Source: Candidatus Puniceispirillum sp. (GTDB taxonomy: Bacteria; Electryoneota; RPQS01; DYHQ01). From it: DNA of 64,000 nucleotides. The notes beneath the pieces are model-generated. The model worked only from the letters and a program-made list of their open reading frames with translations. It did no database searches and had not been told where the DNA came from. The translations under genes and the position numbers were made by a program. Location of the stretch: the NCBI GenBank assembly GCA_020724065.1, contig DYHQ01000001.1:26782-90781 (forward strand). The letters are read 5' to 3'. How positions within the stretch are numbered: the first letter of the stretch is position 1; each line of letters opens with the position of its first letter. Below are positions 1 to 46,160 of this stretch, piece by piece.

Positions 1-1002
1 ACCGAGCTATTTGCCCAGCGAGACATCCGCGCGCTTTCACCCGGAGATTCTGCAAGTGACAGCGTATTCGTGCTCGTTGCTGAGGAAGGTCCGCGTCTTT
101 TCTTGGCTGAACTTGAACTGGACGATGACGATTCAACGAACGATCGTCGTGTCCTTTGGCAGAACATCTCACCTGAGCAAGTTGCTTTGGTCATCAATGA
201 GATACAGTATCGCCCATTTGAAGGGCAAAGTGAATGGGTAGAGTTCTTCTATGCTGGCATGTATCCGCTCGATATTGGCGGCTGGCAATTCTCTGAGGCG
301 ACGGGTCTTGCGAATTCCGATAAGCGCTGGACTTGTCCAGACCTTTGGCTCTCGCCGGGCGACTTTCTCATTTTGGCGGCCGACTCGACCATATTTTTGG
401 AGTCCCTGCCCGAAACCGTCACGGTTTTTGTATGGGGCAGCGGAGCTCCTCGCTTGAATGACACCGGAGATTCGCTTGTGATTTGGGACACGAGCGGTCA
501 GCGGACTGATCAAGTGAATTATGATCCCGACTGGGGTCGGAACGAGGACGGAATCTCCTTGGAACGTATCTCGCCAACAAGCGCAGGCAATGTGTCGCTC
601 AACTGGGCCTCGAGTGCAGATCCCTCAGGCAGTACGCCGGGGCGACCCAACAGTCAACTCTATGTTCCGTCATCTGTTGGAGCCAACATCCTCTCAATCG
701 AACCCAATCCCTTTTCTCCGGATGGAGATGGATTTGAGGACATCGCTTTTCTTCAGTATCATTTGAAATATCCGAACTCGCGTCTCGATTTGAAAGTCTA
801 TGATGTTCGTGGTCGGAAAGTGTGTTCTCTTGCGAACAACGAGCTCGTGGCACAAGAGGGCAAGAAGCTTTGGGACGGAAAAGATGAGCTGGGCAGGGAG
901 CTCCCTGTCGGAATTTATGTTGTGTATCTTGAGGCTCTTGCCCAGGGAGACACGCGCATCGAGAAGGCGAAGCGTGCCATTGTGATTGCACGAAGAAAAT
1001 GA
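1..1002 (+). CDS. Secreted surface protein with a lamin-tail domain (LTD) and a T9SS-type C-terminal sorting domain. The 5' end is partial: the frame is open back to nt 1.
   Basis: Frame 1 has no stop upstream of the 70..1002 ORF. The LTD-like core is INEIQYRP..EWVEFFY..GGWQFSEATG. The C-terminus has the FlgD-Ig/T9SS CTD pattern (NPFSPDGDGFEDIAFLQY...GIYVVYLEA). The stop overlaps the next start (ATGA). Confidence 0.6.
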   Translation, partial: TELFAQRDIRALSPGDSASDSVFVLVAEEGPRLFLAELELDDDDSTNDRRVLWQNISPEQVALVINEIQYRPFEGQSEWVEFFYAGMYPLDIGGWQFSEATGLANSDKRWTCPDLWLSPGDFLILAADSTIFLESLPETVTVFVWGSGAPRLNDTGDSLVIWDTSGQRTDQVNYDPDWGRNEDGISLERISPTSAGNVSLNWASSADPSGSTPGRPNSQLYVPSSVGANILSIEPNPFSPDGDGFEDIAFLQYHLKYPNSRLDLKVYDVRGRKVCSLANNELVAQEGKKLWDGKDELGRELPVGIYVVYLEALAQGDTRIEKAKRAIVIARRK

Positions 1003-15963: not shown

Positions 15964-17802
15964 CTAATGGGCCAGCATTTCCGTAAGAAGGTGATCCATG
16001 AACGACTGTGCTTGCTCCTGATAAGCAAAGTAGAAAGGAAAGCCAAAGACAGCGACGCTGTAAACAGGCCCCAGGTAGACATGGGCACAGTTGCCTCCTT
16101 CAAGCCGCGGGTCATCGGTGGCGGCGTCGAACTTGCCGAGAGTGATTGTCTCGCCCCGGTTGTTGAAAATCCAGCACCTGTCCAGTGCACCCGCCCAGCT
16201 TGCGGGAACCTTTGCAGGATCAATCGCGACATCCGGATAGCCTGTCACACCCGTAATCCCCTTGCACTCGCGTGGGCTCGTGCCGGCACTTTGTATCGCA
16301 TAGAAGAGCCGCATGTAGGTGTAAACGAAGCGATACGGATTGTCTGATGCGCCGACCGGCCCATAGGAAGCCGAGTCCGGTGGGTAGTTGATGCCAAAAG
16401 GCTCGAACAGATCCCACCCGCTAAAGATTGCCTTCCCTCCTCGATCCAAATATTCCGCAAGTACGACTCGATTACTGAGAATGTTCAAGTTTGCCTTGTC
16501 ATCGGCGTGATAGATCACTAAGGCGTAGTGGTAGAGGTCCAAGGGGGAAAGGTAGCTCACTCCGCCCACTTGGTGGGTGGCATAGTCCAATTGAAGGTGA
16601 GGATGGGTGCCGACCATTGCTTCGTAGAAGTTGTCCACCTGTACGTCATTGGGGCTGCCCGCGCCGCCCGTGCCGTCACGCGTCTCGTCTATGATCAGGA
16701 TGGTGTCTGACTCCATCAATTCGAGGATGAATATTCTGTATGATATCGTGTCACTGACTTCTCCGGCAATATCACGGGCCCTGATGCGGAATGAATACTG
16801 ACTGGCCGGAGCGTCCGAGAGCACAATTTCGGGAGTTTCTTGCCATAGCGTTGGATCGAAGGGTTCGTCGCCGATTGCATAGCTGTAGGTGCTTATTCTT
16901 CCAAAGTAAGCTGCGGCACTCGCACTGAAAGTCAGCTTTGTTTCGCGGTTGGCCTTGTAAAAGACCGAGCCATCCGGATAGAAATCGTCCGCGCCATAGG
17001 TTCCAACGACAACCGTGTCCATCGTAGGTCGAAAGCCTTCAGCGACAGTCAAGCGGAGCGAAATCATGGCCCGCCCGGGGGCCTCGCCGGCATCCTTCAC
17101 GCGGGCATAGATCGTATGTTCGCCAACCGTCAACAGATCCTTGTGCATCAGAGTGGTTTTCGGTGGTGGAACGGTTCTAAGAATCCCGTCAACGACTTTA
17201 CGGAAAAGGATGGTATCGCAGAAGAGGAAAATTGGATTACGGGACCAGGAAGACCATTCCTCGACACTATCATCAATGGCAATCGAGTAGAACAGGGAGG
17301 ACGGATTGGGATCTTCGCCTTCGAGCTCAATTGCGAATCCCCTCCCAACCGTCGCGCTATCGGGGACGCTCGTTGCAGCGAAAGCCACGCTTGGACGCGT
17401 GTTGGAAGCATAGAAAGAGCGACTGGGCGGTGAGGTATCCTGCATCCCCTCATTGTCCACGGCGATTACTTGAATTCGATGGGCCACGATGGTGTCGCCG
17501 GGGGCATAGAAGGCGATAGTATCGTCGTAGGCCGAAGTGAACATGAGCGTATCTATGATCGTGGTGTCCGGCGAGATGATCCTATCTATAATCCAGAAGC
17601 CGGCGATGTCTCCATTCGGGTCGGTGGCCGACCATCTCACATGGACGAAGTGATTGAAAGTATCTTGCTCGGCGGGTAGCAGGATGAGCTGGGTCTTGGG
17701 CGGCTGATTCGGGATGGCGCTTCCCGGATCGCTGACTTCACACCCTGCAATGGCGATCACCAGCAAGCCAAAGAGAGTCAATCGCAAAATATCTTTCCGC
17801 AT
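15964..17802 (-). CDS. Large secreted lipoprotein, function unknown. It is the last gene of the minus-strand T9SS/TonB operon.
   Basis: Has a lipobox signal peptide (MRKDILRLTLFGLLVIAIAGC). No CTD or known catalytic motif was recognised. The start was moved to the Met immediately before the signal peptide. Confidence 0.55.
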   Translation of the reverse strand: MRKDILRLTLFGLLVIAIAGCEVSDPGSAIPNQPPKTQLILLPAEQDTFNHFVHVRWSATDPNGDIAGFWIIDRIISPDTTIIDTLMFTSAYDDTIAFYAPGDTIVAHRIQVIAVDNEGMQDTSPPSRSFYASNTRPSVAFAATSVPDSATVGRGFAIELEGEDPNPSSLFYSIAIDDSVEEWSSWSRNPIFLFCDTILFRKVVDGILRTVPPPKTTLMHKDLLTVGEHTIYARVKDAGEAPGRAMISLRLTVAEGFRPTMDTVVVGTYGADDFYPDGSVFYKANRETKLTFSASAAAYFGRISTYSYAIGDEPFDPTLWQETPEIVLSDAPASQYSFRIRARDIAGEVSDTISYRIFILELMESDTILIIDETRDGTGGAGSPNDVQVDNFYEAMVGTHPHLQLDYATHQVGGVSYLSPLDLYHYALVIYHADDKANLNILSNRVVLAEYLDRGGKAIFSGWDLFEPFGINYPPDSASYGPVGASDNPYRFVYTYMRLFYAIQSAGTSPRECKGITGVTGYPDVAIDPAKVPASWAGALDRCWIFNNRGETITLGKFDAATDDPRLEGGNCAHVYLGPVYSVAVFGFPFYFAYQEQAQSFMDHLLTEMLAH

Positions 17803-17837
17803 TTGAGTAACTCCTTCCGGGAAAAGTGAGCGCCCTT

Positions 17838-18905
17838 CTACCATGCAAATCCAAGCGAAAATCGGTGTGGCTGCATACTGAATTCCTCCACAGCCGCGGT
17901 GATATCGCCAAAATAGGAGTAGGCATAGTCGAAGGTGAGGCGGTAGTCCCTACCCATTGGAATCTTAAGTCCTAAGCCAGCGGAGAAACTTTCGGTATCA
18001 TAGGCGAATTTGCCTCCAAGCCGAAGGGCAAGCACCTTATTCCAAATGTACTCCCCTCCGATATTCAGGCGCTCTCGATTGTCATTGGGGTGATTCATCT
18101 CGACCGAGACAATCGCGTCATGCTTATCTCCGGGGTGTGCTTTCACCATCTCAAAGAGATTGGCTGACACACCCAACCGGAACATCGTGGGCAGCGCTGC
18201 ATCCTCATAGCCACGCTCGAAGAGGCCACCGCTTTTCGTCTGATTCCGATAGTCGAAATAGCTGCCCGAATAGGTGACATTGGGACCCAGGTTCTGTATG
18301 GCCATCCCAATCATCAGAGAGCGCAGACCCGTCTGATAGAGCGTCCCCAAGTCGAGCGACAACCCATTGTAGGTCGAATTCTCGAGTCCCGAGCGGAGGT
18401 AGCGCAAATTCGCTCCAAGGGAAAATCGGTCCGTGAGCAGCCGGGCGTAACTCCCTCCAATGATGAAATCATAGGCATTGAAATTCTCGCCCGTGCCCTC
18501 AGGTCTGTAGTAGGTTCGGACTTTCATGTCGCCCGTGTAGAGATTGATGATATGGAGCGAAGCCGCTTGCACGCCGAATTTGCGGGCAATCACGAAAGTA
18601 TTCAGCTGGATGTCCGCCGGCATGTTGATCTGTCCAAGAACGGCCTCGTAGTGCTCTCCCTTGGCACGCTCCAAATAGACGAGCCCTGCGGGATTCCAGA
18701 AGACGGACGAGGCGTCTCGGCACGCTGCGACTTGAGCATTTCCCATCCCCACGCCTCGCACACCCACGGGAATCTTCAAGACTTGAATGGATGTGGTTCC
18801 TACTTTCTCCAAGGCGGATGCGGGGCAAGTTAGCATCCCAAGCAGGAGCAAGAGCAATACCGGAAAAGCGATCAGGCCTTTCCAATGCGCATTTTGATGG
18901 CTCAT
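17838..18905 (-). CDS. PorV/LptO-family outer-membrane beta-barrel (T9SS cargo shuttle), paralog 1
   Basis: Has a signal peptide and the PorV N-terminal signature (GVRGVGMGNAQVAACRDASSVFWNPAGL). The C-terminal residue is aromatic. It is paralogous to 50129..51175. Confidence 0.65.
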   Translation of the reverse strand: MSHQNAHWKGLIAFPVLLLLLLGMLTCPASALEKVGTTSIQVLKIPVGVRGVGMGNAQVAACRDASSVFWNPAGLVYLERAKGEHYEAVLGQINMPADIQLNTFVIARKFGVQAASLHIINLYTGDMKVRTYYRPEGTGENFNAYDFIIGGSYARLLTDRFSLGANLRYLRSGLENSTYNGLSLDLGTLYQTGLRSLMIGMAIQNLGPNVTYSGSYFDYRNQTKSGGLFERGYEDAALPTMFRLGVSANLFEMVKAHPGDKHDAIVSVEMNHPNDNRERLNIGGEYIWNKVLALRLGGKFAYDTESFSAGLGLKIPMGRDYRLTFDYAYSYFGDITAAVEEFSMQPHRFSLGFAW

Positions 18906-18908
18906 ATC

Positions 18909-19682
18909 TTACTCTCCATAGACAAGCACAATTGTTCCCGTGATTTTCGATCCCTCTTGCGTTACTCTCGCCCGAAGGGCATGTTCGCCCGGCGTCAGTC
19001 GCGCCAGCCAGTTCAGTTCGATGTAGCGTCCCTCATTCGCTGGATCCGCGGCGTTCCACTGCCTCATTCGGAGCTGAAAGGACCGACCTTTCATTCCCGA
19101 TGCCGAATCTGTCGGGCTGGCATAGAAGTGCTGACCGGACAAGGTCGTATCGTTGAGATAGACGGCTTCGGGGTATTTGGCCAGAGAGTCATAGGCCAAG
19201 TCATCGAGCCATAGGGAAAGAACGAACCGGTTGTCCGCGACGATGATGAGCGAGTCACGACTGTTACCCATGGCCGTCGTCTCGGCAATCGCTTGACTTA
19301 GACTGTCTCGAGTGGGGATGCCGATGAGGCTGTCTTCATGAGTCCAAGTGGAATCGGCACCCAGCATATCCAGCACCACCAGGTAGCTGGTGATTCTGTC
19401 GGCCGTCGCAGGGAGCCAGATGTTCATAATGGCTTCCATCGAGTCAATAGTACTGTCCGGGTGAATGAAGCCGGCGATCGTCATGCTGGCAGATTCCAAC
19501 AGGTCACCTACTTGAAAGGTGGCACTGAGCGCCTGCACTCCCGAGAGGGCGTCTTCCCAGAGTATGATGGTCTCCGTATTCGCTTGTTCTGAGGAGGCGG
19601 GCGGTGGTGTCCGCGGATCCGCACAGCCGGCCACGAGCAAGGCCACAAGGCACATGAAGAGAAGAAGCTCTAATACTTTCAT
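18909..19682 (-). CDS. Secreted lipoprotein, function unknown
   Basis: Has a lipobox signal peptide (MKVLELLLFMCLVALLVAGC). There is a 3-nt gap to the PorV paralog. Confidence 0.55.
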   Translation of the reverse strand: MKVLELLLFMCLVALLVAGCADPRTPPPASSEQANTETIILWEDALSGVQALSATFQVGDLLESASMTIAGFIHPDSTIDSMEAIMNIWLPATADRITSYLVVLDMLGADSTWTHEDSLIGIPTRDSLSQAIAETTAMGNSRDSLIIVADNRFVLSLWLDDLAYDSLAKYPEAVYLNDTTLSGQHFYASPTDSASGMKGRSFQLRMRQWNAADPANEGRYIELNWLARLTPGEHALRARVTQEGSKITGTIVLVYGE

Positions 19683-19732
19683 AGAGGTCTTTCCTTTCAA
19701 TCGGAATTCGCTTCGTTGCACCAGCCCTTCTT

Positions 19733-21970
19733 TCATTTGATGACAACGAACTTGCCAATATAGCGATCCCAAGGTGTGAACTCGTCCGCTTTGTGTTCGA
19801 CGACATACAGGTAGATGCCGCTCACGATTTCTTGCCTATTTTTGGTGATGAGGTTCCAAGTCTCCTGTTCGGTCCCATTGCAGTGATCGAGAGTGGCCAA
19901 ATGATCTCCCGCCAGGGAGAAAATCTTGATCTTGCATCGCCCCGGCACGCCATTGGCGGGCAAATGCATGAAGTAGAGTTTGCGCGGATATTCAATGAGT
20001 CCCTTCGAGGGATTCACCTCACCGCCAGCTTCGCCAGGGTGAGAGCCCTTGTAGGGATTGGGATAGACATAGATATCGCTCAGGATCGGCGACGCGCCGG
20101 TTGCTTCGGTTCGCACGGTCTTAATCTCTCTGTAATTGCCCGTTCTGGAGGACATCAAGATTCCTGCGCCTTCGACTCCCTTGTCAAAAGCTCTCACCAC
20201 ATAGTAGTAAGTATGACCGGGAATGAGGTCGGTATCATCGAAGTAGTACTGCCCGAGGGAATCAATGTTCGTGGGCATTCCGAGGTTGTAGTTTTGCCAC
20301 TCGAATTCTCCCTCGAGTGTGTCAATGCGATCATAGTAGGCAAGCGCATGCCAATCCTGCTGGTTGAAGGAGCGTTCGATCAGATACCCTTCAAAGTCCA
20401 TGTCCTGCGTGATCGGATCAATGGATTCCTCAGCATTCGGCAACCACGAAATGCGAACCGTATCTGGAGGATGATACCCTACGGTAAAAATCGGCGCATT
20501 TGGTGCCGCAGGGCCTTGAAAATCATTATTGTATAGGCGCAGCGCCCAGTCGGCGTTTTTTGAGCCCTCTGTCGTGTCTCCTCCGGCAATAAAGGCGACT
20601 GTAATCGGGAGCTCCTCGCCCGGCCGAATGATCCATTCTCCTTCACTTGGTCCGAAGCCCAAAAGCATGCGCCAATCCCCCTTTTGCGGCGTGGCCGGAG
20701 CAATAGTACCTGCCGAAATCATGTTGTATTTATCTGCATTCGTTTCGGGGTCGCCGCCAGCCACGCGCTCGAAGTTCGCAAAGGTCACTTCGAGGCTTTC
20801 CAGCGGAACGGGAGTCTGCACCACACGAATGGCGAAGATGCCTGGGGCGGGCCCGTCGTCGTCATTCGGATCATCGTACTGAATCATCATGAGCCGGCCT
20901 GGGTCATAGTAGTTGTAGTCATCAAGGGAGGCCGCATCCCCGCCTTCTCCCCGCGCTCCAATATCGGGATCGGAAAACATGGCCATATAGACATCGCGCA
21001 GGGAAAGCTGCCCGATATTGCGAACTCTGAAATCCAGAAGGATAAACTCGGCTGCATAGTCCTCGGGGTACGCGTAGGTGCGCTGCGAAACCTGGATCTT
21101 GAGAGGGGTATGGCCATCCGCATCGGGGCTGCCTACATAGGTGGCCTCAATGTCGTCTTGATAGACGCAGAAATACTCCTGGACTCCTCGAGCCACACCG
21201 TCTTCGTCAATCTCCCCATCGCCATCGTCGTCCAAAGCCCCGGGGACTTTGTCTCCGTCCAAATCGGGATCTTCAATGTCTACGAGGCCATCGAAGTCAT
21301 TGTCAATGTAGTCGGACGCCATGTCCCCGACGGGATCTTCGTCCATGTGGGTTTCGGGATCGTAGCGCAGATTGCCATCTCCATTGGCGTCCAGACTGTC
21401 TCCGTCCCAATCGGCTGAGGGTTTGCCGTCATTGTCAAGGTCGTCGGCAAGACTCCAATCTCCGTCGTCATCCACACCTTTAGCGCCCTTCACATAGAAT
21501 CGAGGAGGTTCACCCAGTCTCTCGAGCGTCGTTGAAGTGACCACCCAATCGCCAAAATCCGCGGATGAATTCGCCTGAGGATAGGTTCCGATATGGACGG
21601 GATACATTTCGTTCGTTCCATTATCGCCATCGGTGGCCGTCGTAACGAGTCGGCGCTCGTTTGAGATGGCCCCGATCCAGACACCCGAAGAAAACAGGAA
21701 ATCGTTGCCTGAGTTAATGGGGAACTCGAAACCCTTGTACCCGACCGCACCATCGGGATTTCCCTGTTCTCCCCAATTCGCCATGGCCATTCGCACATTC
21801 CCGATATCGTGCATAATCAAAGATTTACGCGCATTGAGATCTGCACTCTGGATAGTCGGAGGCTCGCCGCGGCGCTGCTCAATCACGGTTCGTGCCGAGA
21901 CCAGGACGACGGCGAGGGTTAGAGTGGCCAAGACTCCGGCAACAAAGGGTCTTCCGGAAAGGTTATGCAT
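19733..21970 (-). CDS. T9SS cargo protein with thrombospondin-type-3-like Ca-binding Asp repeats, a fibronectin-III-like region and a C-terminal sorting domain
   Basis: Has a signal peptide. Has DxDxDG runs (DNDGKPSADWDGDSLDANGDGNL, DNDFDGLVDIEDPDLDGD, DDDGDGEIDEDG). The C-terminus is a T9SS CTD (IYVYPNPYKG...GIYLYVVE...KFVVIK). Confidence 0.7.
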   Translation of the reverse strand: MHNLSGRPFVAGVLATLTLAVVLVSARTVIEQRRGEPPTIQSADLNARKSLIMHDIGNVRMAMANWGEQGNPDGAVGYKGFEFPINSGNDFLFSSGVWIGAISNERRLVTTATDGDNGTNEMYPVHIGTYPQANSSADFGDWVVTSTTLERLGEPPRFYVKGAKGVDDDGDWSLADDLDNDGKPSADWDGDSLDANGDGNLRYDPETHMDEDPVGDMASDYIDNDFDGLVDIEDPDLDGDKVPGALDDDGDGEIDEDGVARGVQEYFCVYQDDIEATYVGSPDADGHTPLKIQVSQRTYAYPEDYAAEFILLDFRVRNIGQLSLRDVYMAMFSDPDIGARGEGGDAASLDDYNYYDPGRLMMIQYDDPNDDDGPAPGIFAIRVVQTPVPLESLEVTFANFERVAGGDPETNADKYNMISAGTIAPATPQKGDWRMLLGFGPSEGEWIIRPGEELPITVAFIAGGDTTEGSKNADWALRLYNNDFQGPAAPNAPIFTVGYHPPDTVRISWLPNAEESIDPITQDMDFEGYLIERSFNQQDWHALAYYDRIDTLEGEFEWQNYNLGMPTNIDSLGQYYFDDTDLIPGHTYYYVVRAFDKGVEGAGILMSSRTGNYREIKTVRTEATGASPILSDIYVYPNPYKGSHPGEAGGEVNPSKGLIEYPRKLYFMHLPANGVPGRCKIKIFSLAGDHLATLDHCNGTEQETWNLITKNRQEIVSGIYLYVVEHKADEFTPWDRYIGKFVVIK
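21190..21490 (-). repeat. Asp-rich calcium-binding (TSP3-like) repeat tract inside the cargo gene
   Basis: This stretch encodes DDDGDWS...DNDGKPSADWDGDSLDANGDGN...DNDFDGLVDIEDPDLDGDKVP..DDDGDGEIDEDG. Coordinates are approximate. Confidence 0.5.
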
Positions 21971-21990: not shown

Positions 21991-24900
21991 TTAGAATTCA
22001 ACTCCGAGGCCCACACGGACAAGTCGTCGGGCATCCCAGGCATCGGGATTCGGTCCCGCTTTGGGATTCAGGCCATAGTTTGGAGAAATATTGTCGTTGA
22101 CATAGCCGGCTCGCCCGTCAAATTCGGAATAGGTATCAATGGTGAAGCGGTTCAGATCCCAGCCAAGAATATTGCGGGCGTTAAAGATATTGCGTATCTC
22201 CAGAAGTAGACGCCAACTCAATTTGCCTATTTTGAATTGCCGCGATGCATCCACATCGGTCGTATAGGACCAAGGCGAGCGTTCCGAGAATTCCAGCCCC
22301 TCGATATCGGTGCCGTTGGCATTCGTCGGCGTGTAGGGCAGACCTGAAAGAGCCTGCGAGAGGATGTTCACACTCCATCCCGTCCTCAACCAAGCGGCCG
22401 AAAACGGCTTGCCCCTTAGCAGGCTGTGTGCGCCGATGTTTGCGACGATGGTGTGCCGGCGATCCCAGGCCAGAGGCGTCTCGCGCTTCGGATCCACATA
22501 GTTGGCTCGCGTGACATCCGACCCAATATCATACGAATTCTTGCCGTTGGCCCATGAAATCGTATAGCTCAAACGCCCCGCAAGGTTCGCTCCATATTGC
22601 TTGGAGACACTGAATTCAAATCCGCGAATCGAGGCATAGTCTGCGTTGTAGTATATTGCTGCGTTTGTGCCAACAATACGCCGACCATAAAGGTCGAAGT
22701 AAAGCTGGTTTTGAGAAGCCGTCTGGATCCAGTTCTTGATGTCTTTGTAATAGGTCGAAACATCCAACAAGAAATCTTTGGCAAACTGGTGACGGACTCC
22801 CAACTCATAGGCAATCGTTTTCATCGGGTCCAGGTTGGGATTTCCAATGATGGGAGTGCCGCCGGTCTGGAGCTGGTTCACCGCCGTAAAATAATAGTCG
22901 AGCCGTGAACGCTGGTAGAAATAGCCGTAGTTGAAATGGAAGACATCCTTCTCGGTCACGCTATAGGAAACGCCAAACCGGGGAGAGAGGTAGACTTTTC
23001 CTTCCTTGGGAGGCGGCTCGTAGTCAATGTAATTCTCCGCTCCTGTCTGAGCAATCGGCTTTTCGATGGTTGAGCCGGCATTCCAGTAGTCCATCCGCAG
23101 TCCCATGTTGACGATGATGTCCCGATATTCCATCTTATCCTGGAGATAAATGGCACCTTGGGACGGGAAGGCATGGTAGACATCCGTGTAGATGCCTTGT
23201 CCTGCATTGTCAATCGTCGGGTAAGGTCGGTCTTCCGCCTTCACATCATAGTAGTTGTATTCGAGCCCGGCTTTGACAAGGTGTCGCGGCGTGACTTGGC
23301 TGGCAAGGTCAAACTTCGCGGTCCAAGTGCCGGACTCGAAGTGTGCCCAGTCGGGAACCAATTGCTGGTAGTTTCCGGCCAGCCCATCGCCAATAATGTG
23401 GAATCCGTTTACATGGTCATAGCTGTTCGAGGGATTGCCGGCGTCATAGAGCCCGTCGCCGTCCTGATCCGAGAAAGGTTCTCCAATGTCGTACCGCTGG
23501 TTGTATTTTCCCAGGGCATTGGGAAGATCCGTGAAGGGTTCACCTGCCGTTCCATATTCGCTTGCAGACTTGTCGGCTCCCGCTAAAGTGCGGCTGGCGC
23601 TGAAAGCGCTGAGTCTGACCGTGTAGAAAGTCTTCTGGTTGACGGTGTGGCTCCAGCCAAGGGATACCTGTTGATCCCGTACGCGGTCGGTTCGTGTGTG
23701 GTCGTTGGCGTTATAGCTGTACGATTGCAGATCCTCGTCAATCAGGCCGTCCAGGTCGTCATCGGCCCAGTTAAGGGCTTCTTCGTCGGTGCGACCATCG
23801 CCGTCATCGTCCTCGCCGAATCGGTTGGCATAGGACGGTGCATCTGAGGCATAGCTTTGGGTGGAGGCCAAGGCCAGCATTCCCAAGGAATCCTCTTCTT
23901 GCGAAAAATCATCCGGGAAAATCCGAGATAGCCGGTACCAATACGGATTCTCCCATTGTTGAGATTGATTCCATCCGAGAGTCACTTTATATGCCTGAGC
24001 GGGGGCGTAGGTCAGTTTCACATTCGACGCGGTGTACGCCTGATTCTTGCGTATGTCCGCTCCGAACAGGTCGGTGACCTGGTGGCGATACCAACGGCTG
24101 GAGTTGATCCAAATGCCGTGCTCATTGGTGTTTCGCGACCGAACATTGCCCGAGGCGAACAGGCTCATGGTTCCGGGAAGGCGTGTGCCAAGACGGGGAA
24201 GAATGTGAGTCGTGATTGGTTCCGGACCCGAGATGGACGCCTCGGAATAGTCATAATCTTGATAATAGCTGTCCCCCGTGTCAAAATCCTTCGCATCGAG
24301 ATCCATCACATGCTGCACTTGTCCGTGGTAAGCTGGTTCGCCTTCGCGGACAACCAGATTCACCACGGCAGACTGCGCTTCACCATATTCGGCATTGTAC
24401 CCTGCCGTAAGGACAATCATCTCGGCGATGGAACCCGACCCAACATCCAGCGAGCGTTGCTGAAATTGCGGGTCCTTGACCTGAAGGCCATCCACCAGAT
24501 AGAGGATTTCGTCTCGACGGCCGCCGCGAATATGGATATTCGTTCCCGTTCCCACAGCACCGGCTGTTGCGGCAAGTGCCTGCTGATAAGTTGTTACAGG
24601 AAGGGCTTCAATTTCTTCCCGAGTAACAATGTGAGTGGACGAGGTGATATCCTTGCGTACGACATCGCGTTCGGCCACAACGGTGACTTCCTCTCCCAGA
24701 AGCACCGTCTGCTCCATCGAAAAGGATTGCTCCGTTGTGAGGTCTTGGACAACCACCACCCCTGTCATGATGATGGTTTTGTATCCGATCGCTGTGGCGC
24801 GCAGGTCACAGGTTCCCGGCAGAACATTGAGAATAAAATATTCGCCGTCAATGTTGGTCGAAGCCCCCTGAGTGGTTCCGACAATAAGGATATTCACTCC

Positions 24901-25029
24901 CGGCAACGGCTCACCGGTCGCCTTGTCTTTGATGACGCCGGCGATCTTTCCGGTGACCGCTCCCATCACCGGCGCACCAAGGACAAAAATGAGCAAGGGT
25001 AAAATCAGAAATAGGATTCGCCTGTTCAC
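21991..25029 (-). CDS. SusC-like TonB-dependent receptor (CarboxypepD_reg domain, plug, beta-barrel)
   Basis: The start was re-chosen as a GTG preceded by AGGAGGT, giving the signal peptide MNRRILFLILPLLIFVLG. Has a CarbopepD_reg domain (GKIAGVIKDKATGEPLPGVNILIVGTTQGASTNIDGEYFI), a plug (THIVTREEIEALPVTT) and the C-terminal ...RVGLGVEF. Acidic DDDGDGRTDEE..DDDLDGLIDED inserts are also present. Confidence 0.8.
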   Translation of the reverse strand: MNRRILFLILPLLIFVLGAPVMGAVTGKIAGVIKDKATGEPLPGVNILIVGTTQGASTNIDGEYFILNVLPGTCDLRATAIGYKTIIMTGVVVVQDLTTEQSFSMEQTVLLGEEVTVVAERDVVRKDITSSTHIVTREEIEALPVTTYQQALAATAGAVGTGTNIHIRGGRRDEILYLVDGLQVKDPQFQQRSLDVGSGSIAEMIVLTAGYNAEYGEAQSAVVNLVVREGEPAYHGQVQHVMDLDAKDFDTGDSYYQDYDYSEASISGPEPITTHILPRLGTRLPGTMSLFASGNVRSRNTNEHGIWINSSRWYRHQVTDLFGADIRKNQAYTASNVKLTYAPAQAYKVTLGWNQSQQWENPYWYRLSRIFPDDFSQEEDSLGMLALASTQSYASDAPSYANRFGEDDDGDGRTDEEALNWADDDLDGLIDEDLQSYSYNANDHTRTDRVRDQQVSLGWSHTVNQKTFYTVRLSAFSASRTLAGADKSASEYGTAGEPFTDLPNALGKYNQRYDIGEPFSDQDGDGLYDAGNPSNSYDHVNGFHIIGDGLAGNYQQLVPDWAHFESGTWTAKFDLASQVTPRHLVKAGLEYNYYDVKAEDRPYPTIDNAGQGIYTDVYHAFPSQGAIYLQDKMEYRDIIVNMGLRMDYWNAGSTIEKPIAQTGAENYIDYEPPPKEGKVYLSPRFGVSYSVTEKDVFHFNYGYFYQRSRLDYYFTAVNQLQTGGTPIIGNPNLDPMKTIAYELGVRHQFAKDFLLDVSTYYKDIKNWIQTASQNQLYFDLYGRRIVGTNAAIYYNADYASIRGFEFSVSKQYGANLAGRLSYTISWANGKNSYDIGSDVTRANYVDPKRETPLAWDRRHTIVANIGAHSLLRGKPFSAAWLRTGWSVNILSQALSGLPYTPTNANGTDIEGLEFSERSPWSYTTDVDASRQFKIGKLSWRLLLEIRNIFNARNILGWDLNRFTIDTYSEFDGRAGYVNDNISPNYGLNPKAGPNPDAWDARRLVRVGLGVEF

Positions 25030-25204
25030 CTCAACACCTCCTGCACTATGGGTTGCTCCGGTCAGTGCATGATTGAATCGCAAGGCTCTTTCGTTCGTCG
25101 CAGTTTGGAATGGATGGAACAAAGAAATTCCGGTCTGGGGCAAGGCAGTCTACCTTGCCCCAGATTCGAGTCACCACAAAAATGAGAGAGTCTTGTCTCT
25201 CGTG

Positions 25205-27214
25205 TTACTTCAGCACAACCATCTTTCGGCTCTCGCTGAAACCGTTGGCCGAAAGCCTGTAGATATAGATGCCGCTGGTTAGATTGGAGGCATCGAACGG
25301 AATCGAATAGGAGCCGGCGTGCAACCGCTCATCGAGCAGCGTCGCCACTTCCTGGCCCAGCGTGTTGTAGACCTTCAGCTCCACCTGAGTCGGCAAGGCC
25401 ACATCGAATTTGATGGTCGTCGTCGGGTTGAACGGATTCGGGAAATTGCCGTAGAGGGTGTAGACGGTCGGCTGTGCCGGATGCGGATAGCGCTTGACAT
25501 CCAACCACACATGGCCGGCAACGACCGCGTGTTCTGCATGTGCCGAGTAGTTCATCACGACATCATAGGCGTCACAATAGAACCAGATGGTGTCGCCGTC
25601 AGCGACCTGAGCACCGTCAAAATGCGTATCCGGAACGGTGAAGTAGTAGGTCCCTGAGAAAGTCTCGGGATCGGTCCATGAATAGCTATCAGGGTTGGCG
25701 TAATTCCATTCGGCTCCGTGAGTATTGCTCATCCAGTTCACCAAGATATTGCCTCCGTCATAGTCAACTCCCGTCGCATCCGAAAAGTCTGCGCTGACGA
25801 CATAGGGGCCGAGGGAAGTGGGAGGTGTGACCAATGTCTGATTGGCAATCACGGGACCCTCGAGGTCCGACTGTCCATATTGAGCGCAGAAAGTGATATA
25901 GGCCACGCCCATTTGGCCGCCATCCAATTGGCACTGCTCAATGAAACCGCCGACCAAGCCATCTTCGAAAATGTCCCAGAGCTTCCAGCCGCCGGCCCAA
26001 GTGGCTCCGCCGTCGGTCGAGTAGTTCACCCAGAGCCCTTCCGGAGTAAACTGACCCCAGACATTGCACATCGCGATTGCATTACTGCCACTGAAATAGC
26101 CTTGGTGCACATAGAGAAGGTCGCGGGTTCCGTCATACAGGAGGGAATCAAGGAAGGTTCTTCCCGTCCAAGAGCCTCCGTTGTAGCCGAGTTCGTCGAA
26201 GGCATACCAATTCTTGTGGTAGGCGCCGGTCGCAGGAACGCCGGCGTTGGAGAATATCCACGGCATTTGACCTGTGGGGTCAGCCGCCGAGGATGGATAG
26301 CGCTGCGCACCGGCAATCGTGGAGCCGCCGAAAGTCGAGCCTTGATCCATTGACAAATAGACGGCTGTTGCCGATACATCCGAGTTTCGGAAGCAGCCGA
26401 AGAGGGCGTTGTTGTCCACATCATAGGCCATGGGCATACAGGCTCCAATGTAGTAGCTGTATTCGGTTCCGGAGTAGTCATTTGGGTCGTAGATGGTCGC
26501 CGTGCCCGCCATGGATGTTGGGAAGCGAGCGAAGTATTGGTTGCGATCCCCGTCCGCATCCTGGAAAATGAAGAAGAAGTTGTTGGCGCTCGCCTTCTCC
26601 GCCAAGTGCGGATACTGGGCTGTTGCATGAATGGTTGGCTCGGTCGCCACTACGACCAACGCACTCCAGTTTGCGCCATGATCCGTGGACTTGGAGGCCC
26701 AGAAGGTCGTATTCTCACGGGCATCTGTTCCCCATATGAGGCAGTACAGATTGCCGGAGGGGTCAATGGCCGCACTCGCCCAGGAGAAGGTGTTGGTTCC
26801 CTGAGCGGCGATGAGTGTCTCCACCCAGTCTGTTCCGCCATTCGTCGTGTGGACATCGTAGACTCCGTCGTCTGCGGCGCTTGCATGGGTGTTGATTACC
26901 CCGAAGTAATGGAGATTGTTCTGATCATCGCACAGGCTGCCGAAGTCATACATCTCGGAGTTCCAACCTGTCAGATCGGACAAGTCCCCCGCCTGCCGGA
27001 TATCGGACCAGGTGTGACCATAGTCGGTGGTTTTCACATACCGATACTGAATTTCATTCTGATCAAGGTGTCCGTTCCCTTGGCAGGGTAGCCGGACAGC
27101 CTTTTCATGGTTCCCAGGAAGGGCCTTCGGATTGGGGAGAGCCCAAGCAGAAACGACAAGCATCAAACCGATTCCCAGAGCCAGCGCGAGGAAGATGGTT
27201 CCTTTTTTGGTCAT
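25205..27214 (-). CDS. BNR/Asp-box (sialidase-like) repeat protein with a T9SS C-terminal sorting domain. It is the first gene of the minus-strand operon.
   Basis: Has a signal peptide. Has multiple SxDxGxTW Asp-boxes (TTDYGHTWS, STDHGANWS, SMDQGSTFG, STDGGATWA). The CTD is FPNPFNPTTTIKFDV...KVYNTLGQEVATLLDE...GIYIYRLSA...MVVLK. Confidence 0.75.
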   Translation of the reverse strand: MTKKGTIFLALALGIGLMLVVSAWALPNPKALPGNHEKAVRLPCQGNGHLDQNEIQYRYVKTTDYGHTWSDIRQAGDLSDLTGWNSEMYDFGSLCDDQNNLHYFGVINTHASAADDGVYDVHTTNGGTDWVETLIAAQGTNTFSWASAAIDPSGNLYCLIWGTDARENTTFWASKSTDHGANWSALVVVATEPTIHATAQYPHLAEKASANNFFFIFQDADGDRNQYFARFPTSMAGTATIYDPNDYSGTEYSYYIGACMPMAYDVDNNALFGCFRNSDVSATAVYLSMDQGSTFGGSTIAGAQRYPSSAADPTGQMPWIFSNAGVPATGAYHKNWYAFDELGYNGGSWTGRTFLDSLLYDGTRDLLYVHQGYFSGSNAIAMCNVWGQFTPEGLWVNYSTDGGATWAGGWKLWDIFEDGLVGGFIEQCQLDGGQMGVAYITFCAQYGQSDLEGPVIANQTLVTPPTSLGPYVVSADFSDATGVDYDGGNILVNWMSNTHGAEWNYANPDSYSWTDPETFSGTYYFTVPDTHFDGAQVADGDTIWFYCDAYDVVMNYSAHAEHAVVAGHVWLDVKRYPHPAQPTVYTLYGNFPNPFNPTTTIKFDVALPTQVELKVYNTLGQEVATLLDERLHAGSYSIPFDASNLTSGIYIYRLSANGFSESRKMVVLK

Positions 27215-42306: not shown

Positions 42307-42315
42307 AGGTTGGTC

Positions 42316-43761
42316 ATGATGAAACCAATAAGGACTATCGGGGGTACCGCCATGTGGTTCATAGGATTGCTTCTCTTGCTTTCCCTTATGGGGCAAGCAC
42401 GCCCAGCGGAAGCGGGCTTGGCCATTGACCTGGATTACGCGTGCTTCCGCGGGCGCGATTCACTTGTTTATGTCGAGGTGTTCGCCTCGGTGCAGCGTTC
42501 ACAGCTTGTGTATGCTCAAACCGATTCGGGACTCGCCGCTCGGTTTCGGCTTGCCATGAGCATGGTGCGGAGTGGCGAGGTCATAGCTTCGGACACGCTT
42601 CAAGGCTTTGACATGGTTACCGATTCCAGTGAACTCAGGGCCGGTCAATTCTTCCCGTATGTGTTCGCCTTCTATTTGAAACCTGGGCACTATGAGGCTC
42701 AAGCCGATCTGGAAGATGAGACGAGTGGAGTCAGCGAACGCAAGACCGTTTCGACAGTCATCGAACAGGCCTCCACGGATTCGTTGGCGATGTCCGATAT
42801 CGAACTGGCCTGCCTTGTCGAAAAAACGGACGAAGTCTCACGGTTCTGGAAAAACGGCTTTCGCGTTCTTCCTAATCCGGTACGATTCTATGGAACGCAA
42901 CTGCCGCTTTTTTATTATTATTGTGAGTTGTACAACTTCAGATTCTTTCCTGATTCTCCTGACAGCTTCATGATTCACCGGCAGATTCGAGCGGCCGAAA
43001 CGGGGACGGTGGTCCGCTCGTTGCCAGCTCGCGTCAAGAAGAAGGCCGGAGCAACCGCGGTCGAGGCTGACGGATTTCCCATTACGACCTTAAGTACGGG
43101 CACCTACAGCTTTGAAATCCGTATCACCGACCTCTACGACAATTGCGTGGCTGAAGAAGTCAAGAAGTTCTGGGTGTATCGCCCGGAGGATTTTGAAGCG
43201 GGTCGCAGAACAGCGACGGATTCGCTTTTTGTTGGACGGCTTGCTGAGTTCGCACAGCCTGCGGCAGACATCGAGAATGCGGAAGTTGCGCTGGAGCAGA
43301 TGCGCCATATCCTGACGGCGGATGAGATTGCTCGTGTCCGGAGGCTGACTCCCGAGGGGAAAGTCCAGTTCTTGCGAGAGTATTGGGAGCGCGTGGCTCA
43401 GCCGGAAGGGATAACCCCCGAGCTTGCGCGATGGAAATACTTCAGCCGTATTGAAGAGGCCAATCGGCGATTTTCATACCTGAAAAAGGAAGGTTGGAAG
43501 ACAGACCGCGGTCGCGTCTACGCCCAACTGGGGCCCCCGGATTTGGTGGATTATCGCACGGCGCAGGAAGACACACCGGACCATGAAATCTGGTACTATG
43601 ACAAAATCGAAGGAGGCGTGCAATTCGTCTTCGCCGATAAGTCCGGCTTTGGGGACCTGGAGCTTGTGCACTCGACGAAGCGTGGCGAGATTTCCGATCT
43701 CAACTGGCTCAAGACACTGAGTGGGCGGCCGTTGGACGAACGAACGAGACTCTCACAATGA
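42316..43761 (+). CDS. Secreted GWxTD-domain protein
   Basis: Has a signal peptide. The C-terminus has GWKTDRGRVYAQLGPPD (a GWxTD motif). The start was set at the ATG preceded by GAGG. Confidence 0.6.
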   Translation: MMKPIRTIGGTAMWFIGLLLLLSLMGQARPAEAGLAIDLDYACFRGRDSLVYVEVFASVQRSQLVYAQTDSGLAARFRLAMSMVRSGEVIASDTLQGFDMVTDSSELRAGQFFPYVFAFYLKPGHYEAQADLEDETSGVSERKTVSTVIEQASTDSLAMSDIELACLVEKTDEVSRFWKNGFRVLPNPVRFYGTQLPLFYYYCELYNFRFFPDSPDSFMIHRQIRAAETGTVVRSLPARVKKKAGATAVEADGFPITTLSTGTYSFEIRITDLYDNCVAEEVKKFWVYRPEDFEAGRRTATDSLFVGRLAEFAQPAADIENAEVALEQMRHILTADEIARVRRLTPEGKVQFLREYWERVAQPEGITPELARWKYFSRIEEANRRFSYLKKEGWKTDRGRVYAQLGPPDLVDYRTAQEDTPDHEIWYYDKIEGGVQFVFADKSGFGDLELVHSTKRGEISDLNWLKTLSGRPLDERTRLSQ

Positions 43762-44510
43762 ACTCCACCGCGCAAATTGTCACTGAAGGACTCTCGAAGA
43801 CTTACTATGACAGTCGCCGTGGGGCTATTCATGCGGCGGTTGACATTGGCATTGCGTGCAGCGCCGGCGAGGTTTTTGGGCTTTTGGGAACCAATGGTGC
43901 TGGCAAGACGACGACCCTGCGCATGCTGTCAACGGTTCTGCAACCAACCAGCGGGAGGGCATGGGTGGCCGGTTTTGAGGTTAGCGAGAATCCTCAAGCA
44001 ATTCGGGAGCGTATCGGATTTCTCTCGAGCGATACGGGCATCTATGGCCGTCTGACGGCGCGGGAGATGATGCGTTATTTCGGGCAACTTTGTGGGATGC
44101 CTTCCGAGATGATTGAGAGGCGTGTTGAAGAGATTAGCGCTCGTTTTGATATGAAGGAATTTCTCGACAGCCGTTGTGAAAAACTTTCCAGCGGTCAAAG
44201 GCAGAGAGTCTCGATTGGGCGCACGATTATTCATGACCCACCGGTGCTGATCTTAGACGAACCCACCGCAGGGCTGGATGTCCTGGCGGCAGCGGAAATC
44301 GTTCGTTTTATCCATCAAGCGCGTTCTGAAGGCCGATGTGTTCTTCTGTCCACGCATATCATGCGCGAAGCGGAGAAACTGTGTGACCGGATTGCCATTC
44401 TCCACGAGGGGCGCATTCAAGCCTGTGGACCTCTGGACCAGCTCTATCAAAGCATGCAAACGACTGATCTTGAAGAGGTCTTCATGCACGTTGTCGGGAT
44501 GGCCGTGTAG
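43758..44510 (+). CDS. ABC transporter ATP-binding protein (single gene, no permease adjacent)
   Basis: Walker A is [10 protein letters not shown], signature is LSSGQRQR, Walker B is [11 protein letters not shown]. The start overlaps the GWxTD gene stop (ATGA). Confidence 0.8.
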
Positions 44511-44616
44511 TCTATTGGCAACCCTGTTGGCACTTATTTTGCTCGTTAAGTCGGTGGAATAGAAATGTCTATCCAAGCAACGCCGGTAAGCTCAATGATG
44601 AAGAGGAGAGCAAAGG

Positions 44617-45828
44617 ATGTCTCCAACGCAATCTGAACACTACAAGCTCTTGGTCATAGACGATGATAAGGCAATTCTTGCCTTCCTGCAGGAGAGTTTT
44701 TCACGCGACGGGTATCAAGTGTATCTTGCCGCGACGCTCGCCGAGGCTCGCGCTCTCCTGGCTCGGCATGAAGTCCATGTGGTTCTGTCCGACCAGAATC
44801 TTCCGGACGGGAACGGAGTTGATTTCTTGGCGGAATTACACGGGACGGGTATCGAAGCGATTCCGATTTTGATGACCGGTTATGCTGACCTGAACATCGC
44901 TCTGGATGCGATTAATCGCGGCAAGGTTTACAAATTTGTAAGAAAGCCGGTGGACCATATCCTCCTGAAGCAGATTGTCCAAAGGGCGGCGGAGCATTAT
45001 GCGTTGCTTGAGGAGAAGAAGCGTTTGGCTAGTGAGGTACTTCGTTACAACGAGCTTCTTCGTCGAGATTCGGAGCTCCAATCCCGTGACCTCAAGTCGG
45101 CTCACTCAAAGATTCAGAAACACAGTCAAACGCTGCGCAAGCAGAAAGAGCAAATTGAAACGCTTTACACTGAAATTCAATCGGCCTATCTTCACACGGT
45201 GACTTCCTTGTGCGTGGCGATCGAGGCAAAGGATTTATACACGCGGGGTCATAGCGACCGCATCTATTACTATTGCACGCTTACTAGCCGACGCCTCGGA
45301 TTGGACAATGCGAGTTTTGAGGAACTGAAGCTGGCTGGCGTTCTTCATGATATTGGGAAGATCGGCATTCCGGATAGCATCCTGCGAAAGACCTCGGCAC
45401 TCACCGAATCCGAACATGCCATGATTCGCACGCACCTTGATTTTGCGGACAAAATCCTCATGCCGCTTCCCTTTCTGGAAAAAACACGGCGCATTGTGAG
45501 ACAACACCATGAGCGGTATGATGGAACAGGCTATCCGGATGGTCTGAAAGGGGAAGAGATTTCGATCGAAGGCCGCATTTTGGCCGTCGCCGATGCCTAC
45601 GATGCGATGCGTTCTAATCGCTCGTATCGAAATGCCCTCACGATGCGGGCGGCTTTTGATCAATTGGAAGCGGAGTCCGGCAAGCAATTCTGCCCATTGT
45701 GCGTTGCGGCTCTGCGCACGGGTATTAGCGAAGAGGGAGAGTATCCTCAGGCTGCGCAAGCGTCCGCTCCCTCCTTGCCGCCGCCCCAAGCAAAACCCTC
45801 CCGCCTGCGCTCAAGAGTCTCACATTGA
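44617..45828 (+). CDS. Response regulator with a REC receiver domain and an HD-GYP phosphodiesterase domain (orphan: no histidine kinase adjacent)
   Basis: The receiver is LLVIDDDKAIL..VVLSDQNLPDGNG. The HD-GYP domain has HSDRI, LHDIGKIGIPD and HHERYDGTGYPDGL. An AGGAGAG ribosome-binding site precedes the start. Confidence 0.8.
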   Translation: MSPTQSEHYKLLVIDDDKAILAFLQESFSRDGYQVYLAATLAEARALLARHEVHVVLSDQNLPDGNGVDFLAELHGTGIEAIPILMTGYADLNIALDAINRGKVYKFVRKPVDHILLKQIVQRAAEHYALLEEKKRLASEVLRYNELLRRDSELQSRDLKSAHSKIQKHSQTLRKQKEQIETLYTEIQSAYLHTVTSLCVAIEAKDLYTRGHSDRIYYYCTLTSRRLGLDNASFEELKLAGVLHDIGKIGIPDSILRKTSALTESEHAMIRTHLDFADKILMPLPFLEKTRRIVRQHHERYDGTGYPDGLKGEEISIEGRILAVADAYDAMRSNRSYRNALTMRAAFDQLEAESGKQFCPLCVAALRTGISEEGEYPQAAQASAPSLPPPQAKPSRLRSRVSH

Positions 45829-45957: not shown

Positions 45958-46160
45958 TTAAAACATCAGACGGCTTGCCAGGAGATAAATGCCCCTTCCT
46001 TAAGAGGATTTTTGAGTCGGGAATTCGATTTCAAAGACTACATCCTCCGTCGTTACCTCTTCCGGCAGGGCGCTATCTCCTTTCAAGTTTCTTGCGACCG
46101 AATGATTCAGGTAACGAATGTTCGGTTTTTTTGTTGTCAACCGTCGGGAACTACTCATTT

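Follow-up and report, generated by a model that had tools for sequence, protein, structure and literature searches.

A 64,000-nucleotide stretch of the Candidatus Puniceispirillum sp. assembly GCA_020724065.1 (contig DYHQ01000001.1, positions 26,782 to 90,781 of the forward strand; hereafter the window, in whose coordinates all features are given) encodes two outer-membrane β-barrels of the PorV family, known from type IX secretion systems (T9SS). Barrel B (50129..51175, + strand, 348 aa) is a housekeeping PorV ortholog encoded directly after the PorU sortase, and barrel A (17838..18905, − strand, 355 aa) belongs to a separate and older clade that is hard-wired into cassettes built around a TonB-dependent receptor (TBDR). 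There A probably holds a secreted surface protein in place. On balance, we read it as the cognate anchor for the retained-type C-terminal domain (CTD) of u745, a secreted protein of the same cassette, in a surface capture complex beside the receptor. In the T9SS field, PorV-family barrels are assigned either to the secretion machinery itself (PorV, PorQ) or to the export of gliding adhesins (SprF), and the glycan-uptake field takes SusC/SusD as the defining pair of nutrient loci in the FCB (Fibrobacterota–Chlorobiota–Bacteroidota) group. If our reading is true, a strictly conserved cassette of receptor, CTD protein and PorV-like barrel links the two fields, explains how binding proteins are placed on receptors without SusD in Calditrichota, KSB1, Rhodothermota and Ignavibacteriota, and offers a marker for such loci in metagenomes. 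We found no paper in the literature that analyses this arrangement.

Results

Both open reading frames (ORFs) are present, with the lengths given above, where the original prediction from this DNA had placed them. Both pass the NCBIfam PorV/PorQ family model NF033709 (A 183.6 bits, B 278.2 bits; cut-off 90) and the Pfam PorV model PF19572 (A 45 bits, B 95.6 bits; cut-off 27). A hidden Markov model (HMM) built from 75 barrels and run against every window ORF ≥100 aa matches only A and B, and the two align at 26% identity over approximately 316 residues (E 4e-17). Judged by these matches, A and B are distant paralogs of the PorV family, as had been proposed, but A is no PorV ortholog (78/250 bits on the PorV equivalog, and a clade of its own). 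The proposed common signature, G.G.GMG.A.VA..DAS..WNPAGL, survives in part: the literal pattern matches neither A nor B, but both carry the core GMG.A.VA(x3-5)[DE]A(x3-5)WNPAGL, of which N-P is the sole part invariant across A orthologs, many of them having WNPG. The motif sits in the N-terminal plug, the position of the NPA motif of FadL, for which the Protein Data Bank (PDB) lists N33A, P34A and delta-NPA mutants. Because the positions are equivalent, the motif marks the FadL/PorV superfamily and not PorV specifically.

At the level of equivalogs, A reaches 78.4 bits on PorV (NF033710, N-terminal half only; cut-off 250), 71 bits on PorQ (NF033711; cut-off 220) and 48.1 bits on PorV2 (NF052325; cut-off 325), and has no match to PorP/SprF (TIGR03519; cut-off 90.55 bits) at E<=0.01. 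Its score on Toluene_X (PF03349) is 24.6 bits, below the cut-off of 29.7. No PorU2-type gene was found beside A in Pfam and NCBIfam scans of the window, and no locus with an A ortholog has PorU within 10 kb of the barrel. An AlphaFold2 model of A built with 114 homologs (pLDDT 87.3, pTM 0.80) has 14 strands and a helical N-terminal plug. The best PDB folds are the PorV chains 8gl6_F and 6h3i_F, at E 2.8e-16 and a template-modelling (TM) score of 0.67, compared with a TM score of approximately 0.53 and E of approximately 1e-10 for FadL, TbuX and TodX. The grouping with PorQ or FadL and not with PorV, which the original prediction had named as speaking against it, is therefore not what the fold of A indicates. 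A FadL-type channel would make A a lateral-diffusion route for a hydrophobic or amphipathic product beside the TBDR, with mere operon neighbourhood linking it to the CTD protein. Such a channel would accord with the FadL superfamily membership of A, the conserved plug with its NP(A/G) motif, the sub-threshold Toluene_X score and the FadL/TbuX/TodX fold matches, but the fold is nearer to PorV than to any FadL-type channel and we regard this role as very unlikely.

More than 100 orthologs of A, 42–94% identical, occur in Calditrichota, KSB1 and unclassified metagenome-assembled genomes (MAGs). We placed A in a simple neighbour-joining tree of 75 barrels and a partial Flavobacterium johnsoniae PorV taken from a printed alignment, and compared it with PorQ, PorP and SprF through their NCBIfam family scores. 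The A orthologs (class 1) are monophyletic (84% bootstrap), and a split with 56% bootstrap separates class 1, class 2 (the related barrels of other phyla described below) and two unassigned barrels (L061 and L065) from the remainder. Class-1 barrels are on average 54% identical to one another, 31% to those of class 2, 26% to those of the PorU-linked class 3 and 23% to F. johnsoniae PorV. By these scores and groupings A is neither PorV proper, PorQ, PorP/SprF nor FadL, but a member of its own clade of TonB-receptor-linked barrels. The profile of the A family matches 1,154 clusters at E<=1e-30 among 1.84 billion representatives, counted regardless of receptor linkage.

A lies in a minus-strand gene run with a TBDR and CTD-bearing cargo, in agreement with the TonB/cargo operon of the original prediction. 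The order is cargo669 (25205..27214), the TBDR (21991..25143), u745 (19733..21970), u287 (18909..19772), A and u626 (15964..17844), all on the − strand and with short gaps once probable starts are used. For three genes the longest-ORF start is probably too early: the TBDR probably begins at GTG 25029 (codon 39), preceded by AGGAGG, and Shine-Dalgarno-like sequences mark probable starts at ATG 19682 for u287 and ATG 17802 for u626. Both A and u745 have ordinary signal peptides. The receptor has CarboxypepD_reg, Plug and barrel domains (PF13715, PF07715, PF00593) and is not of the SusC type, with 69.2 bits on the SusC/RagA model TIGR04056 in its N-terminal part only (cut-off 368); Pfam and NCBIfam find no SusD family match in the four genes downstream of it.

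We analysed synteny in a genome scan with one genome per species, covering 79 loci, and in three distant genomes examined separately. All 33 non-redundant A-ortholog loci with an upstream flank have u745–u287–A, and in every related locus with enough sequence the TBDR and u626 are also there, with order and strand unchanged. These 33 loci come from Calditrichota, KSB1 and allied MAGs, one of them titled Caldithrix abyssi, with A 43–82% identical and TBDR orthologs 44–76% identical in the same position. The cassette order of the three distant genomes is identical to that of the window. Such strict synteny excludes chance adjacency of A with the cassette and bears out the earlier idea that the TonB-linked paralog is dedicated to its locus. 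The flanks vary among genomes; those in the window consist of housekeeping genes (acetate kinase, 3-hydroxyacyl-CoA dehydrogenase, CbiQ, TruA and transaldolase).

The two lipoproteins are u287, with a 287-aa ORF and the lipobox LLVAGC, and u626, with a 626-aa ORF and the lipobox IAIAGC followed by EVSD. u287 has no Pfam or NCBIfam family match, has a lipobox-like motif in 24 of 29 orthologs and in class 1 always stands between u745 and A. u626 is matched by P0241 at 100% identity over 612 aa, and its PDB profile search returned only FN3-like N-terminal repeats. The two proteins align with each other over approximately 95 columns (hhalign probability 82%, E 1e-5), in what is probably an Ig/FN3-like domain. 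M28-peptidase/FN3 proteins of WOR-3-type bacteria match approximately 39% of u626 as well.

That two lipoproteins are fixed members of the cassette would suit an assembly or scaffold role, in which A would be a BamG-like auxiliary barrel that packs on the TBDR and organises or inserts a receptor–lipoprotein complex, with no specific CTD binding. In the Bacteroidota β-barrel assembly machinery the loops of the FadL-like BamG mediate its binding to BamA and to a surface lipoprotein (PMC12578637), and the BamG chains 9n2d_B and 9hjm_F are among the fold matches of A. These matches are far weaker than those to PorV (E 4e-7 vs 3e-16), and a scaffold would give no account of a neighbour whose CTD type changes exactly with the presence of the barrel, as described below, so that we consider it improbable.

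The third accessory protein, u745, is a secreted protein of 745 aa with a signal peptide, a β-sandwich body, an FN3-like domain and a divergent CTD, and has no Pfam or NCBIfam match as a whole. Its AlphaFold2 model (pLDDT 87.8, pTM 0.84) has a large β-sandwich body with D-rich, Ca-binding-like loops, an FN3-like domain at approximately residues 490–620 and a seven-strand C-terminal sandwich with strands in residues 634–743. Foldseek returned the N-terminal sandwich of GH94, FN3 domains, PorZ (5m11, rank 2) and PorU (6za2) for this model, and the sequence/profile search of the PDB returned only non-significant matches of the tail to PorU and PorZ (E 0.38 and 0.63). D-rich DxDxDG repeats resembling calcium-binding loops occur at residues ~165–260 of u745 and also at residues ~440–480 of the TBDR ORF, for example DDDGDGEIDEDG and DDDGDGRTDEE…DDDLDGLIDEDL, and many of the aspartates are invariant in 99 homologs.

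The CTD of u745 (19736..20110, − strand, residues 621–745) is divergent and of a PorZ/PorU-like type. The last ~120 residues read YPNPY…KIKIFSLAGD…SGIYLYVVE…GKFVVIK. Tails of ~117–120 residues from the window and three related loci (L001, L003 and L005) match essentially only T9SS CTD models, all below threshold. With a cut-off of E<=0.01, the tails of 29 u745 orthologs match TIGR04183 in 25 cases (best E 2.2e-5), the PorZ C-terminus in 18 (best E 3.3e-6) and the PorU C-terminus in 4, and no unrelated, non-T9SS family appears among these matches. The type A, PorZ and PorU models and CHU_C all match the u745 tail at similar weak scores. Profile comparisons point in the same direction: an HMM of the class-1 CTDs finds the C-terminus of the window PorU at 25.4 bits (E 9e-8), compared with approximately 10.5 bits for two ordinary cargo CTDs, and an HMM of class-2 tails finds residues 621–745 of the window u745 at 73.7 bits (E 8e-23). 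More distant full-length relatives of u745, annotated as T9SS sorting-domain proteins, have a canonical PF18962 CTD. By these profile matches the u745 tail is a T9SS CTD, nearer to the CTDs of PorZ and PorU than to those of ordinary cleaved cargo. The window has no PorZ gene.

The CTDs of PorZ and PorU are uncleaved and stay bound to PorQ and PorV (PMC10202324), and cognate PorV-like barrels hold uncleaved CTDs in PorQ/PorZ, PorV/PorU and SprF-type pairs (PMC10202324). A PorZ/PorU-like tail on u745 consequently favours a stable anchor of the PorQ/PorZ type over a transient shuttle.

Paralogs of u745 amount to a natural experiment. We inspected six that carry a canonical PF18962 CTD, and none of the six has a TBDR or a PorV-family barrel within 8–10 kb. 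Three have an adjacent u626 homolog that itself carries a canonical CTD, with no detected match to the lipobox-bearing N-terminus. The cassette form has u626 as a lipoprotein, u745 with the special tail, and the TBDR, u287 and A present. Barrel A stands beside 34/34 cassette-type u745 genes and 0/6 canonical-CTD paralogs (Fisher p ~3e-7, with shared ancestry ignored), so the divergent CTD is linked with the presence of the barrel. As the six canonical-CTD paralogs have neither barrel nor receptor, related bodies appear to reach the surface in two ways, either free, as T9SS cargo, or as members of the cassette. The exact co-variation of barrel and special CTD is left unexplained by a FadL-type channel.

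The product of the upstream gene cargo669 is a type A cargo protein of the T9SS that combines BNR-like SxDxGxTW repeats with a canonical CTD (PF18962 39.8 bits, TIGR04183 44.5 bits), and it has no match in a PDB sequence/profile search. The gene is present in approximately two-thirds of the related loci with an upstream flank, which makes it a frequent but not an obligatory neighbour; we rejected it as the client of A, given its absence from the remaining third or so. A hairpin with a T-run (25184..25201, − strand) follows its stop codon, so cargo669 may be transcribed apart from the receptor operon. This hairpin was the sole noteworthy element in a promoter and terminator scan whose counts were at chance level.

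A different use of A would be as a private shuttle that replaces PorV at SprA/Sov only for cassette cargo (u745, cargo669 or both) and delivers it to PorU for CTD cleavage and attachment, acting as a transient sorter. The best structural match of A is indeed PorV in the substrate-bound translocon complex (8gl6_F), cargo-specific PorV-like barrels are an accepted concept for PorP/SprF (PMC10202324), and a canonical CTD cargo gene lies upstream in approximately two-thirds of the related loci with an upstream flank. However, the cargo found with A in every case carries a PorZ/PorU-like tail and not an ordinary one, u745 paralogs with ordinary tails need no private barrel, cargo669 is dispensable to the cassette, and a general PorV is already present both in the window (B) and on the same contigs in relatives. 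We consider the shuttle unlikely. Sequence alone does not separate the roles of anchor and shuttle, but the anchor is the more likely. The cargo sorting by a dedicated paralog that had originally been proposed thus stands in so far as A is dedicated to its locus, but its likely client is u745 and an anchor is favoured over a shuttle.

Barrels 27–32% identical to A (class 2) occur in Bacteroidota, Rhodothermales (including the complete genome of Roseithermus sacchariphilus) and Ignavibacteriota, where a receptor (~980 aa) is followed by a ~745-aa protein, the barrel and a ~495-aa protein. The ~745-aa protein is a homolog of u745 by hhalign (E 2e-45 over ~420 columns) and ends in …ASGVYFFVVED…GKFV(V/I)IH. 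The PorZ CTD model matches 14 of 16 class-2 tails (best E 1.6e-11), and TIGR04183 reaches a best E of 1.6e-7. The class-2 barrel of locus L051 scores 83.7 bits on the PorQ equivalog (cut-off 220). One class-2 cassette, in a Bacteroidota MAG, is part of a pectin locus, between GH28, a CTD-bearing pectate lyase and GH88. The alginate locus of Rhodothermus marinus lists tonB, hypA, hypB and hypC without comment (PMC9530828, Fig. 2), that is, a TBDR, a 2,181-nt gene for a T9SS-CTD protein, a 1,056-nt gene for a PorV/PorQ family protein and a 1,398-nt hypothetical gene (PMC9530828); by annotation and gene size this series matches class 2. Pectin and alginate are both hydrophilic, which again speaks against a FadL-type channel for hydrophobic products.

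Class 2 lacks u287 and u626 and has the ~495-aa protein instead (L051:11002-12489, with equivalents in L045–L062). Neither u626 nor u287 is accepted as the counterpart of this protein (hhalign probability <1%). It has no Pfam or NCBIfam match, but its alignment with the barrel profile (hhalign probability 97%, E 8e-11) and its hatch-like N-terminus (…PLTIQGL…SAASRGAGGI…) suggest another FadL/PorV-like barrel of very divergent sequence.

Barrel B, the paralog that the original prediction had paired with the sortase, does start directly after PorU (PorU end 50027, B start 50129). PorU (45975..50027, + strand) is a C25 peptidase with a retained CTD that scores 646 bits on NF033707 (cut-off 420) and 241 bits on PF01364/Peptidase_C25. 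B covers the full length of the PorV equivalog NF033710 at 207.1 bits, below the cut-off of 250, and also stays below the cut-offs of PorQ (NF033711, 99.1 bits; cut-off 220), PorV2 (NF052325, 39.5 bits; cut-off 325), PorP/SprF (TIGR03519, 26 bits; cut-off 90.55) and Toluene_X (PF03349, 21.9 bits; cut-off 29.7). In a PDB comparison it matches F. johnsoniae PorV (6h3i_F) at E 2.9e-26. In the tree it falls into the PorU-linked class 3 (62% bootstrap), with F. johnsoniae PorV as a weakly supported sister. The synteny scan found the order PorU, B homolog and M6-like gene in approximately 20 loci from other phyla, among them Zixibacteria, Gemmatimonadota, Eisenbacteria and Latescibacterota, and homologs of B lie on the same contigs as the cassette in relatives. 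B is the general, housekeeping PorV of the T9SS, which receives CTD cargo from the translocon and works with the PorU sortase.

Discussion

In the mechanism that we favour, u745 would use its specialised CTD for export via Sec and the T9SS. This CTD, proposed to stay uncleaved because of its PorZ/PorU-like type, would then be captured by the extracellular face of A, as in PorQ–PorZ and PorV–PorU. The β-sandwich and FN3 body of u745 would thereby be fixed on the cell surface by the receptor, together with the two lipoproteins, and the assembly would capture a macromolecular substrate, most likely a glycan, and feed it to the TBDR. It would thus act like SusD or the surface glycan-binding proteins in lineages and loci that have no SusD. 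The predicted extracellular loops of A, which are as conserved as its strands (0.70 and 0.69, compared with 0.57 for the periplasmic turns, with sidedness assigned by the usual FadL topology rule on the predicted model), support such a complex.

Several observations weigh against this interpretation. The window u745 tail is below every curated CTD threshold (15.5/23 bits on TIGR04183 and 16/27 bits on PF18962). The clade of TBDR-linked barrels has a bootstrap of only 56% in a simple neighbour-joining tree and includes the unassigned L061 and L065, and the separation of A from PorQ comes from equivalog scores; PDB searches with the barrels returned no PorQ chain. Loop conservation depends on the topology rule and on a predicted model, and two periplasmic turns are also well conserved. 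The synteny is equally compatible with any other role of A in the same complex. Finally, we found no degradative enzyme adjoining the class-1 cassette in the window, and both the substrate and the label 'nutrient' are for this reason guesses there.

Among known systems, the PorQ–PorZ and PorV–PorU pairs of Porphyromonas gingivalis are similar in combining a 14-strand barrel of this family with a T9SS-exported partner that has a PorZ/PorU-type CTD, and the proposed logic, in which the barrel keeps an uncleaved CTD and so anchors its partner at the surface, is the same. They differ in that A fails both the PorQ (71/220) and the PorV (78/250) equivalogs, that the partner is a β-sandwich/FN3 protein, and that A and u745 are encoded in a TBDR operon with two lipoproteins and not with the secretion machinery. 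The general cargo shuttle PorV of F. johnsoniae (Fjoh_1555; 6H3I, 8GL6) is the best PDB match of both barrels, for A by sequence and fold and for B by sequence, but adjacency to PorU and a PorV score close to the threshold are found for B only, whereas A falls into another clade. SprF/PorP barrels, which serve type B CTD cargo such as SprB, are likewise cargo-specific PorV-like barrels encoded beside their cargo, although A has no match to their model TIGR03519 at E<=0.01. To our knowledge, SprF systems involve no TonB receptor.

SusC/SusD loci are comparable in that the TBDR carries CarboxypepD_reg at its N-terminus and its gene is immediately followed by those of accessory proteins exposed on the surface, and the class-2 version lies among pectin enzymes, with the matching series listed among alginate enzymes. 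In contrast to SusC/SusD, the cassette has no SusD homolog, its receptor fails the SusC/RagA model (69/368), and its accessory protein would be delivered by the T9SS and held by a barrel instead of a lipid anchor. We therefore suggest, tentatively and with less confidence than we have in the anchor itself, that the cassette and its distant relatives in polysaccharide loci of Bacteroidota, Rhodothermota and Ignavibacteriota may represent an undescribed and widespread design for surface nutrient capture. In this design, a T9SS-exported substrate-binding protein with a never-cleaved PorZ-like CTD would be docked permanently on a dedicated barrel beside the TBDR, in place of lipid-anchored SusD or surface glycan-binding proteins. 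The u745 family offers a natural test of CTD retention versus cleavage, as homologous bodies carry an ordinary CTD without a nearby barrel and a special CTD with one. Related cassettes are apparently present in the cultured organisms Rhodothermus marinus and Roseithermus sacchariphilus, and also in Caldithrix abyssi provided that the MAG is titled correctly.

Other features of the window

Directly downstream of B lies a gene for an M6-like inactivated metalloprotease with a CTD (51225..54227, + strand), a T9SS-dependent protein that scores 428 bits on NF052323, below the cut-off of 600, and 31.9 bits on PF18962. It is followed by a 1068-aa ORF (54122..57328, + strand) with PD40/TolB-like propeller repeats and an Omp85-type domain, the true start of which is probably later, given that the annotated start overlaps the M6-like gene. 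Upstream of PorU, the region 42310..45828 (+ strand) encodes a GWxTD-domain protein, a GldA-like ABC ATPase (166 bits, cut-off 402) and a response regulator with an HD-GYP-type domain, a group that may serve regulation or gliding beside the T9SS genes. The window also encodes one more T9SS cargo (70..1002, + strand), a small protein that combines a Lamin-tail domain with a C-terminal signal of the CHU_C type.

Two observations concern the genomes used for comparison. In five loci from Zixibacteria-like and unclassified MAGs (L080, L083, L085, L087 and L088) the PorV homolog lies within an open frame of 806–846 aa, either an N-terminal fusion or an artefact of choosing the first start codon. 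The full cassette is also found in MAGs titled 'uncultured Alphaproteobacteria' (L011, L012, L015–L017, L021, L023, L033 and L039), with proteins 54–79% identical to those of Calditrichota/KSB1-type genomes, and these taxonomic labels look wrong.

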